Shown here in pieces: positions 2,413-4,350 of a DNA stretch of 11,694 bases. The stretch is from IMG/VR virus record IMGVR_UViG_2671180437_000003, positions 1 through 11,694 of that record; one strand, written 5' to 3'. This DNA is from a virus (lineage: Duplodnaviria > Heunggongvirae > Uroviricota > Caudoviricetes). Each line of letters begins with the position of its first letter. The stretch's first letter is position 1. A program made the position numbers and the translations under genes. The notes below the pieces were generated by a model, which did not search any database, was not told where the DNA came from, and worked only from the letters and a program-made list of their open reading frames with translations.

Positions 2413-4350
2413 GTGACTCTTAAACGGGCCTGTTCCCTGCTGACGGTGAAATCCTTCAGCGAGGATGAACGGGTGATCACCGGGATTGCGTCAACGCCTT
2501 CTCCGGATCGGGATGGTGACATCCTGGAGCCGGAGGGGGCGGAGTTTGGCAGTACGATCCCGTTTCTCTGGCAGCATGACCATTCCCGCCCTGTAGGCCA
2601 GTGTACGGTGCGTCGGGTCAGGGAAGGGCTGGAAATCACGGCAATGCTGGTGAAGCCGGAGCCGGGGATGCCCTCCCAGATGGCAGCCCGGCTGGATGAG
2701 GCCTGGGCTGCCATTAAGACCGGGCTGGTCAGGGGGCTTTCTGTGGGCTTCCGGCCCCATGAATACACTTATCTGGACGGAGGCGGACTGCATTTTCTGC
2801 GCTGGGAGCTGATGGAGGTGTCTGCCGTCACCGTGCCCGCGAATGCGGAATGCACCATCCGGACCATTAAATATTTCGACCGCCCGTTTTCTGCCGCGTC
2901 CGGCAACCGGAAACCGGTGGTGAAAATCGCATCTTCTGCCGGCGCTTCGGCACAGTCAATCACCTCTTTTCATAAGGAAAAGTCAGCAATGAATACTGGT
3001 GAACAGATTAAAAGTTTTGAAAACAAGCGTGCGGCGCTGGCAGCCTCCCTTGAGGAGATCATGAACAAAGCCGCAGAGGAAGGCCGCACACTGGATGTGG
3101 AAGAGGAAGAGCACTACGACAACACCGCAGCGGAAATCCGTCAGGTGGATGCGCACCTGAAGCGTCTGCGTGAACTGGAAACCAGTAAGGCCGCCACGGC
3201 ACAGCCGGTGAAACAGGCCGGTAACGGGAATGTGGCCACGGTGGCTTCAGCGCCGGTGATCCGTGTTGAGCAGAAACTGGAGAAGGGGATTGGTTTCGCC
3301 CGCTTTGCCAAATCACTGGCCGCGGCTAAAGGTGTCCGCTCTGAAGCCCTGGAAGTGGCCCGTCGTCAGTATCCGGATGACAGCCGTCTGCATCATGTCC
3401 TGAAATCGGCGGTGGGGGCAGGGACCACCACGGACCCACAGTGGGCAGGCAGCCTGTCTGAATATCAGGAATACGCACAGGACTTTATTGATTACCTGCG
3501 TCCTCAGACCATTATCGGGCGATTTGGTCAGGGCGGGATCCCTGCTCTTCGTCAGGTGCCGTTCAATATCCGCGTGCATGCCCAGGTGTCCGGCGGTGCT
3601 GCCGGCTGGGTGGGGGAGGGTAAGGCAAAACCCCTGACGAAGTTTGATTTTGAATCCATCACCTTCAGTCATGCGAAGGTGTCGGCCATTGCGGTACTGA
3701 CGGAAGAATTGATCCGTTTTTCCAGTCCGGCAGCTGATGCGCTGGTCCGTAATGCGCTGGCAGAAGCGGTGGTGGCGCGTCTGGACACAGACTTTGTGGA
3801 CCCGAAAAAAGCTGCAGTGGCAGATGTCTCCCCGGCGTCCATCACCCATGATGTGAAGGGCACGGCATCAACCGGTAACCCGGATGCGGATGCCGAGGCC
3901 GCGTTTGGCCAGTTTGTGACGGCAAATCTGCAGCCCACTGGTGCGGTCTGGCTGATGTCCAGCACCAATGCCCTGGCGCTGTCCATGCGTAAAAATGCGC
4001 TGGGTCAGAAGGAATATCCGGACATGACCCTGCTGGGCGGGATCTTTCAGGGGCTTCCGGTGATTGTCTCCCAGTATGTGGGTGACCAGCTGGTACTGGT
4101 GAATGCACCGGATATTTATCTGGCGGATGACGGCGGTGTGGCAGTGGATATGTCCCGTGAAGCGTCACTGGAAATGCAGTCTGAGCCGGGCGGCGACAGC
4201 ACCACACCGTCGCCGGTGGAGCTGGTTTCCATGTTCCAGACCGGCAGCGTGGCCATCCGTGCGGAGCGCTGGATCAACTGGCGTCGTCGCCGTACTGCGG
4301 CGGTGGCTGTGATCACCGGTGTGAACTACGGCAGTGCGTCCGGCGGCTGA
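2413..4350 (+). CDS. Fusion protein: HK97-family prohead protease (S78/U35-like), coiled-coil scaffold (delta) region, and HK97-fold major capsid protein
   Basis: 645 aa ORF, GTG start at 2413 with AGGAGG 5 nt upstream. N-terminal part carries protease-like motifs WQHDHSRPVGQ and GLSVGF; the middle is a charged, coiled-coil-like segment (from MNTGEQIKSFENKRAALAASLEEIMNKAAEEGR); the C-terminal ~400 aa look like an HK97-family major capsid protein. Confidence 0.75.
   Translation: MTLKRACSLLTVKSFSEDERVITGIASTPSPDRDGDILEPEGAEFGSTIPFLWQHDHSRPVGQCTVRRVREGLEITAMLVKPEPGMPSQMAARLDEAWAAIKTGLVRGLSVGFRPHEYTYLDGGGLHFLRWELMEVSAVTVPANAECTIRTIKYFDRPFSAASGNRKPVVKIASSAGASAQSITSFHKEKSAMNTGEQIKSFENKRAALAASLEEIMNKAAEEGRTLDVEEEEHYDNTAAEIRQVDAHLKRLRELETSKAATAQPVKQAGNGNVATVASAPVIRVEQKLEKGIGFARFAKSLAAAKGVRSEALEVARRQYPDDSRLHHVLKSAVGAGTTTDPQWAGSLSEYQEYAQDFIDYLRPQTIIGRFGQGGIPALRQVPFNIRVHAQVSGGAAGWVGEGKAKPLTKFDFESITFSHAKVSAIAVLTEELIRFSSPAADALVRNALAEAVVARLDTDFVDPKKAAVADVSPASITHDVKGTASTGNPDADAEAAFGQFVTANLQPTGAVWLMSSTNALALSMRKNALGQKEYPDMTLLGGIFQGLPVIVSQYVGDQLVLVNAPDIYLADDGGVAVDMSREASLEMQSEPGGDSTTPSPVELVSMFQTGSVAIRAERWINWRRRRTAAVAVITGVNYGSASGG

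Follow-up and report, generated by a model that had tools for sequence, protein, structure and literature searches.

In bacteriophages lambda and Mu, the head protease and its scaffold are encoded by nested in-frame genes (C/Nu3 and I/Z, respectively), and lambda C/Nu3 and herpes simplex virus (HSV) UL26/UL26.5 are the textbook examples of nested initiation. The protease encoded by lambda C is of the S49/ClpP-like family, which differs from the one described here. These systems and the gp17/gp17.5 pair of the archaeal virus HFTV1 share an N-terminal protease and a nested in-frame assembly partner without the protease. In all four, the nested product is a stand-alone scaffold, the capsid gene is separate, and both products have been shown experimentally. 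HSV uses a second transcript instead of an internal ribosome-binding site. According to a ribosome-profiling preprint on HFTV1, the protease enters the procapsid by way of the C-terminal part that both products share, and the ratio of the two starts sets the stoichiometry. In HK97, the prohead protease (gp4) and the major capsid protein (MCP; gp5) are separate proteins, and only TAAtt lies between their adjacent genes. The HK97 protease is said, from the work of Hendrix and Duda, to be directed into the prohead by the last ~60 residues of its sequence. Here we describe a 645-amino-acid (aa) open reading frame (ORF) at positions 2413 to 4350, on the plus strand, of an 11,694-nucleotide (nt) stretch of viral DNA (IMG/VR record IMGVR_UViG_2671180437_000003, positions 1 to 11,694; referred to as the window), in which an HK97-type protease, a delta-like scaffolding domain, and the MCP are joined in one frame. 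Comparison with relatives suggests that a single message most likely gives two products, the full-length protease-capsid protein and a shorter delta-MCP protein that would start at an internal ATG at position 2989.

The gene is the head gene of a lambdoid, Stx (Shiga toxin)-converting-type Escherichia coli prophage. Prophage copies are 98 to 99.5% identical in DNA to the window gene, and the 645-aa ORF (90 to 99% identity) was found in 1,252 of 5,426 complete E. coli genomes. It is also carried by 93 phage records, mostly Stx1a- and Stx2c-converting and some Stx2a-converting phages, together with "PPompW" phages. Stx1a- and Stx2c-converting phages and O157, O55, and O145 prophages have an identical architecture, with 96 to 99% identity for the Stx phages, and the window gene is a member of this group. 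A more distant homologue is gp03 of Pseudomonas phage PAJU2 ("major head protein; prohead protease fused capsid protein"), with 48% identity over the full length. The common gene order in PAJU2 and the Stx phage group is TerS, TerL, fusion gene, small ORF, portal, ORF, and connector, and no internal start is marked in any of their annotations. PGAP labels the gene of E. coli E110019 as one coding sequence (CDS), "phage major capsid protein," whereas in Stx1a phage Stx1_14040 it is labeled "phage prohead protease." Counted by representatives of clusters at 50% identity, the family comprises 12,014 matches at an E value of ≤1e-3 and 1,156 at ≤1e-30; the majority of the best 150 are full-length fusions of roughly 630 to 680 aa.

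A first-pass annotation, made by reading the window alone, had described the ORF as a prohead protease, a scaffold-like coiled coil, and an HK97-fold capsid protein in a single frame, and the coordinates and domains were confirmed. The ORF runs from GTG (2413 to 2415) to TGA (4348 to 4350) and encodes a 69.3-kDa protein. The protease motifs that had been placed in the first ~190 residues, WQHDH and GLSVGF, are found at aa 53 to 57 and 108 to 113. The proposed profile check of aa 1 to 190 versus aa 193 to 645 separated the two halves: Pfam PF04586 (Peptidase_S78) matched aa 48 to 151, scoring 32.7 bits for the full protein and 35.9 bits when aa 1 to 192 were searched alone (cut-off, 21), and the capsid profiles matched downstream. 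TIGR01543 scored 44.1 bits, under its equivalog cut-off of 59. Using hhalign, the family profile aligned to HK97 gp4 with a probability of 96.8% (E value, 2.4e-10). In this alignment, His55 and Ser110 paired column for column with gp4 His65 and Ser114, which we take to be the catalytic pair of the HK97 enzyme. Both residues are invariant across the 46 and 28 diverged sequences of our alignments A1 and A2, respectively.

An AlphaFold model of the full-length protein, built from 46 diverged homologues, had a mean predicted local distance difference test (pLDDT) score of 79.5. It showed a beta-rich part (aa 1 to 142), a disordered linker (143 to 191), two helices (195 to 223 and 229 to 262; pLDDT of about 90), a second disordered segment (267 to 282), and an HK97 fold from about aa 293. 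The coiled-coil, delta-like segment and the capsid domain of the first-pass annotation correspond to the two helices and to this fold. When the full-length model was compared with the PDB by Foldseek, only capsid proteins were matched, and the protease domain was modeled separately for the fold search. The top match for aa 1 to 192 was the T4 gp21 protease (5jbl), a weak hit (probability, 0.99; E value, about 1e-2; TM score, 0.40 to 0.46), followed by a herpesvirus protease, that of Kaposi's sarcoma-associated herpesvirus (probability, 0.5 to 0.6). The capsid part matched the capsid proteins of Bxb1, HK97, T5, D3, and Muddy with E values of 1e-14 to 1e-9, the best values being 1.6e-14 for Bxb1 and about 1e-10 for the HK97 capsid chains. 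Pfam PF05065 (Phage_capsid) matched aa 386 to 635 (51.4 bits; cut-off, 24.2), and TIGR01554, an HK97-type MCP model that includes the delta domain, matched aa 204 to 584 (77.1 bits; cut-off, 27.5). The capsid part has only remote sequence similarity to HK97 gp5, and hhalign of the family profile against the single gp5 sequence was not significant (probability, 1.8%). The capsid assignment rests on TIGR01554, Pfam, and the fold search. Positions 198 to 264 of the A1 profile matched residues 4 to 70 of the major head protein of EcCI2, a capsid-forming phage-inducible chromosomal island (cf-PICI), for which a structure has been solved (9gyi_B). PHROG 617 ("major head protein," 626 positions), which spans both domains, matched aa 1 to 639 over profile positions 7 to 626 (E value, 1.8e-257). 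No separate protease or scaffold gene was found in the head module. The ORF is thus an in-frame fusion of the equivalents of HK97 genes 4 and 5, that is, of the prohead protease and of an MCP with an N-terminal delta domain. The fusion is real, although as a finding it is not new: the architecture has long been known, and genes of actinobacteriophages are routinely annotated as "capsid and protease fusion."

Two linker motifs, AASG (aa 161 to 164; nt 2893 to 2904) and AGASA (aa 176 to 180; nt 2938 to 2952), are semiconserved, at about 40 to 70% per column, with the family consensus AA(S/T)G and PGASG. They contain Ala-Ser dipeptides that resemble herpesvirus assemblin cleavage sites; a role in release or self-cleavage would be pure speculation.

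The in-frame ATG that had been proposed as a second start is present at 2989 to 2991, following AAGGAAAAG (2974 to 2982), and is the codon of Met193, from which the protein reads MNTGEQIK. We compared about 230 relatives overall for this start. Junctions between the protease and capsid parts were taken at the DNA level from 29 loci of one-genome-per-species bacterial contigs and from 80 loci of IMG/VR (32 to 99% identity), which gave 86 distinct sequences from Enterobacterales, PAJU2, Hydrocarboniphaga, Marinobacter, Rhizobiales, Caulobacteraceae, and IMG/VR contigs. Each was searched for an in-frame ATG, GTG, or TTG no more than 9 codons upstream of a conserved "EQI" motif, combined with Shine-Dalgarno (SD) pairing of −4 kcal/mol or better. 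Such a start was found at the position of Met193 in 85 of the 86 junctions (80 ATG, 4 GTG, and 1 TTG), at an observed distance of 4 to 7 codons from EQI. At random positions of the same ORFs, the same combination occurred at about 10%. The exception (L026) has AGGA and then an ATG a few codons further upstream. In higher-GC lineages, the junction SD is GGAGG(G), with −10 to −12 kcal/mol. In 30 of 85 loci, no other internal in-frame start of the ORF has a better SD than the one at the junction.

The same position was conserved at greater distance. Of 145 full-length cluster representatives (38 to 54% identical to the query), 129 carry a methionine no more than 8 residues before the anchor, compared to 18% expected from composition. 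In the remaining 16, Val or Leu stands at the Met193 offset or close to it, which fits GTG and TTG starts, since such codons were found wherever the DNA is known. At neighboring linker positions, the commonest residue reaches at most about 30%.

Conservation of the SD did not follow the encoded peptide. An exact SD core of at least 4 nt was present 5 to 12 nt upstream of the start in all 85 junctions. It occurred in all three codon phases (AAG GAA, AAA GGA, GAG GGC, and ACA AGG AGC, among others) and was encoded by 23 different peptide strings (KE, KG, EG, QE, TEA, RR, and others); in PAJU2, the homologous junction reads GAGGGC...ATG. At positions −2 to −6, GGA made up 58% of the glycine codons, compared to 9% ORF-wide. 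The independence of codon phase, the variety of peptides, and the bias toward GGA together indicate conservation at the level of the RNA and not of the protein. As a separate observation, many enterobacterial homologues (L005, L057, and others; e.g., ACC AAA AAA GGA AAC) have a run of 6 to 7 A just upstream of the internal start, where the window has only AAAA; runs of this length can cause transcriptional slippage.

In some relatives the two halves are separate genes, and the MCP gene starts at the codon homologous to Met193, as seen in loci L028 and L029, in L103, and in Moraxella phage Mcat4. In the IMG/VR locus L103, the protease gene ends with ...GHK-TAA and is directly adjoined, in the same frame, by ATG-ACC... 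(MTTKTVGEQI). The two genes of Mcat4 overlap as ATGA, with GGAG upstream, and in two Snodgrassella alvi prophages MTIEEQI follows a short spacer that contains GAGAGG. HK97 has TAA-tt-ATG between the end of gene 4 and the start of gene 5. Moreover, four stand-alone MCPs among the cluster representatives begin at the equivalent of Met193, and the N terminus of the EcCI2 head protein aligns to profile position 198. Since split relatives start their capsid gene at the junction, the fusion amounts to a read-through from the protease gene into a capsid gene whose own initiation region has been retained. Taken with the conservation of its SD, this suggests that the start at 2989 is probably functional.

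The mRNA around the internal start is unusually open. Across loci, the start coincides with the deepest local minimum of predicted structure (mean z of +2.1 at offset 0), and by median rank the junction window falls among the least-structured 1.4% of windows. The junctions contain 42% GC versus 58% and 43% A versus 22%. In the window, the predicted fold at the junction is −9.5 kcal/mol, compared to a gene mean of −17.9 kcal/mol. The two starts differ in kind: GTG 2413 combines a strong SD (AGGAGG; Table 1) with a weak start codon and a mean unpaired probability of 0.36, and ATG 2989 combines a moderate SD with a strong start codon and an unpaired probability of 0.56.

Codon usage also differs between the two halves of the ORF. 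The codon adaptation index (CAI) was 0.27 for codons 2 to 192 (0.24 for the protease domain), near the values for the low-copy TerL (0.29) and portal (0.28). For codons 193 to 645 it was 0.42, the maximum of the window (Mann-Whitney, P = 0.005 versus the upstream part). The index was higher downstream than upstream in 80 of 83 unique loci, and HK97, used as a control, showed the same contrast between gp4 (0.33) and gp5 (0.49). This asymmetry supports unequal translation of the two halves, without mapping the start.

According to our model, one late mRNA would be read from two starts. Initiation at GTG 2413 would give the 69.3-kDa protein consisting of protease, linker, delta domain, and MCP, and initiation at ATG 2989, within what would be the former initiation region of the capsid gene, would give a 48.4-kDa delta-MCP protein, probably the more abundant of the two. 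With their delta and MCP parts in common, the long and short products should coassemble into proheads, and the protease would be carried inside by a covalent tether. A disordered linker to the scaffold would thus stand in for the C-terminal tail by which HK97 gp4 is targeted noncovalently. Once inside, the protease would cut off the linker and the delta domains and also degrade itself, and the mature capsid protein that remains would be roughly 350 aa long. How many proteases each prohead receives would follow from the ratio at which the two starts are used. The analysis shows the domain architecture, the catalytic residues, and the conservation and mRNA setting of the internal start; synthesis of the two products, an excess of the short one, their ratio and coassembly, and the positions of cleavage are inferred.

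Several points weigh against a second start, and the support for it is wholly comparative and computational. The window ORF has 49 internal in-frame ATG, GTG, or TTG codons, 9 of which have SD pairing at least as good as that of ATG 2989, and its own SD is moderate (AAGGA, at the 15th percentile of codon positions, with a 10-nt spacer). In the window alone ATG 2989 is therefore unremarkable, and it stands out only by its conservation, the low mRNA structure, and the asymmetry in codon usage. The A-richness and low structure could partly reflect a disordered linker rich in Lys, Asn, and Thr. The CAI was computed with Sharp and Li E. coli weights entered by hand; it rises from around codon 130 to 150, at the start of the linker, and not sharply at 193, and a change-point scan did not single out codon 193. 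The sequences compared share ancestry, and the counts overstate the number of independent observations. Finally, the stronger SD lies upstream, which makes an excess of the short product less certain.

These points leave room for an alternative in which only the 645-aa polyprotein is made. Each subunit would carry a protease that cuts in cis or in trans after assembly, and Met193 with its SD-like purines would be a relic or would serve at the protein level, for example, in processing where the delta domain begins. In favor of this reading, all annotations give the fusion as one CDS, its upstream ribosome-binding site is strong, and the internal SD in the window is unexceptional. Since split and fused states interconvert by one mutation, some relic signal is to be expected. 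A capsid made entirely of full-length subunits is also physically possible: by a rough estimate, its T=7 shell would enclose about 13 MDa of internal protein, near the scaffold loads of P22, and about 415 protease-delta extensions are sterically conceivable. A relic, however, is expected to decay, yet the start and its SD are kept in nearly all junctions and the start position in about 89% of the 145 deeply diverged clusters, in the midst of a linker that varies freely. Neither the phase-independent conservation of the SD nor the synonymous preference for GGA is explained by a relic or by a role of the peptide. The same applies to Val and Leu substitutes that prove to be GTG and TTG starts where the DNA is known, and to the structure minimum and codon-adaptation asymmetry at the site. 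For these reasons, we consider production of the polyprotein alone unlikely, while counting it the most serious competitor of a second start.

The short product could also come from a separate transcript, with a promoter inside the protease-coding part, following the precedent of herpesvirus UL26/UL26.5, rather than from internal ribosome entry. No sigma-70-like promoter was found between positions 2200 and 4700, where 0.8 would be expected by chance, and a second product would accordingly arise by internal initiation of translation. Lambdoid late genes are, moreover, read from one Q-antiterminated transcript, and what is conserved at the junction is an SD with a start codon rather than promoter hexamers. 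A nested transcript is thus very improbable. That the single ORF is a sequencing or assembly error, or a functionless pseudogene in which an accidental loss of a stop codon joined two genes, has next to no likelihood, despite odd, frameshift-like longer chimeras in the database (P0002 and P0003). The same ORF recurs in the E. coli genomes and phage records listed above, inducible Stx1a- and Stx2c-converting phages included; more than 1,100 clusters match it at an E value of ≤1e-30, most of the best 150 being full-length fusions; and the catalytic residues are invariant in the alignments.

The two chimeras, of 1,079 aa with a TerL domain (P0002) and 784 aa with a portal domain (P0003), are single-member entries on short contigs and look like frameshift or assembly artifacts.

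The first-pass annotation had likened the second start to the nested initiation of lambda C/Nu3. In line with this, an in-frame start with a ribosome-binding site lies after the protease domain, two residues before the first scaffold helix, and the conserved start and SD, the split relatives, and the CAI are consistent with such initiation. The likeness does not extend to the product, which in the window would be not a stand-alone scaffold but a 453-aa scaffold plus capsid protein, the long form being a capsid subunit as well. The gene would thus be a variant of the lambda C/Nu3 type and not a strict member, and its two products are predicted from sequence, whereas those of lambda, Mu, HSV-1, and HFTV1 were demonstrated by experiment. 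HK97 shares with the window the protease family, its His and Ser residues, and the codon-adaptation asymmetry. It differs in that its protease is a free protein, whereas that of the window is joined through a disordered linker to the delta domain, and in that its portal gene precedes the protease gene, whereas the portal of the window follows the capsid gene. The same kind of architecture, in different sequence families, is found in NF045541 (scaf_prot_MCP2, "prohead protease/major capsid protein fusion protein") and in SEA-PHAGES clusters AN, AU, AW, and EE. Membership of the window protein in NF045541 was rejected (52.6 bits versus a cut-off of 525, with a partial match at aa 49 to 267). A protease-scaffold fusion of Bas13, described in a preprint on the cyclic oligonucleotide-based antiphage signaling system (CBASS), was also set aside; it belongs to another phage and is not a protease-capsid fusion. 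We found no report of an internal start in a protease-MCP fusion in the openly searchable full-text literature, and an earlier mention is possible.

On a broader scale, we lean slightly toward the view that, across the more than 1,100 clusters (50% identity; E value, ≤1e-30), protease dosage is set purely at translation. Two ribosome-binding sites would compete on one ORF, the long product would be both a capsid subunit and a covalent carrier of the protease, and a targeting domain of its own would be dispensable to the protease. The recurrent natural switching among fused, TAA-ATG, ATGA, and spaced junctions would then act as an evolutionary dial of dosage.

The amount of protease and its targeting into the procapsid are recurring questions for tailed-phage and herpesvirus assembly. 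Should the internal start be in use, the ratio of protease to capsid protein could be tuned in a simple system by editing two ribosome-binding sites, which is relevant to the engineering of HK97-type capsids and of encapsulin-like containers with a defined internal cargo. About one in four complete E. coli genomes carries the module, which also occurs in Stx-converting phages, and annotation would need correcting, as thousands of database entries give one product where two are likely. No new principle is involved, nested initiation being textbook knowledge for lambda C/Nu3 and HSV UL26/UL26.5; the internal start is a modestly new variant of a known strategy, which a specialist would probably call the expected solution. 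The features of the locus are collected in Table 1.

Table 1. Features of the protease-capsid fusion gene, in window coordinates
Feature	Position	Strand	Basis
SD of the full-length product, AGGAGG	2402..2407	+	Direct reading; pairing −10.3 kcal/mol; GGAGG/GGAGA equivalents before the N-terminal start in relatives
Whole ORF: protease, linker, delta-like scaffold, HK97-fold MCP	2413..4350	+	Single CDS in E. coli E110019 and Stx1a phage Stx1_14040; PHROG 617 end to end
HK97-family (Peptidase S78) prohead protease domain, aa 1-142	2413..2838	+	PF04586; hhalign to HK97 gp4; AlphaFold pLDDT about 85-95
His55 codon, predicted catalytic histidine (WQH55DH)	2575..2577	+	Aligned to HK97 gp4 His65; invariant in alignments A1 and A2
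Ser110 codon, predicted catalytic serine (GLS110VGF)	2740..2742	+	Aligned to HK97 gp4 Ser114; invariant in alignments A1 and A2
Disordered linker of variable length and sequence, aa 143-192	2839..2988	+	pLDDT <50 over aa 143-191; column conservation in family alignments
Putative internal SD core AAGGA, inside AAGGAAAAG (2974-2982), 10 nt upstream of ATG 2989	2974..2978	+	Pairing −6.2 kcal/mol; junction conservation
Putative internal in-frame start ATG (Met193) of the predicted 453-aa, 48.4-kDa scaffold-MCP product	2989..2991	+	Conservation in junction DNAs and cluster representatives; start of separate MCP genes
Delta-like scaffolding domain, aa 193-266 (helices 195-223 and 229-262)	2989..3210	+	AlphaFold; A1 profile match to 9gyi_B; TIGR01554 from aa 204
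Flexible segment, aa 267-292, at the scaffold/capsid-fold boundary; likely maturation-cleavage region by analogy with HK97 gp5 Lys103/Ser104	3211..3288	+	pLDDT <50 over aa 267-282
HK97-fold MCP core, aa 293-645	3289..4347	+	PF05065; Foldseek matches

The module containing the fusion gene has the order TerS, TerL, fusion gene, 73-aa ORF, portal, 299-aa ORF, head-tail connector, head closure, HK97-gp10-like, tail completion, and tail tube. Within this module (128 to 9064), the capsid gene lies before the portal gene and directly after TerL, an unusual arrangement among HK97-like head modules that PAJU2 and Moraxella phage Mcat4 share; in other respects it is a standard head-tail module. TerL ends at 2349, and the 63-nt gap between it and the capsid gene contains a terminator-like hairpin (GAACCGCtgcgGCGGTTT then TTTTATTTT; 2374 to 2400) just before the SD. 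With 3 terminator-like sites in 2.5 kb versus 2.3 expected, this hairpin is not significant alone. A putative terminator is also annotated just before the protease gene of HK97 (L113, 3309 to 3335).

The 73-aa ORF (4395 to 4616), in the interval between the capsid and portal genes, has no Pfam match and is annotated by PGAP as hypothetical; it shares 55 nt, read in a different frame, with the beginning of the portal gene. At this place PAJU2 carries two small ORFs. The portal gene (4562 to 5926) and the 299-aa ORF (5923 to 6822) overlap by ATGA. In E110019, PGAP annotates the pair as one "frameshifted" portal pseudogene (L001, 8150 to 10734), and in the Stx1 phage record both are called "portal protein." An equal two-gene arrangement is present in PAJU2 (ORF006/ORF007), and the pair is probably two coupled genes wrongly merged by PGAP and not a frameshift. 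The 299-aa ORF has no Pfam match and contains a repeated motif of ~45 aa (IPVPRDGRDYDPDVLQQAVNDAV... and IPAPRDGRDYDPEVLKQAVLEAV..., also PVPADGKS and PAPQDGRDA); Tandem Repeats Finder detected no DNA-level repeat in this ORF. Judging from where it lies in the head module, it may encode a head accessory or decoration protein.

The tail tube protein (8219 to 9064) has an Ig-like domain at its C terminus (aa 192 to 270; Pfam Ig_3, Ig_2, and I-set). Its listed start, GTG 8219, lies upstream of the one given in annotations of relatives (a 239-aa "major tail subunit" CDS), which would correspond to an ATG near 8345.

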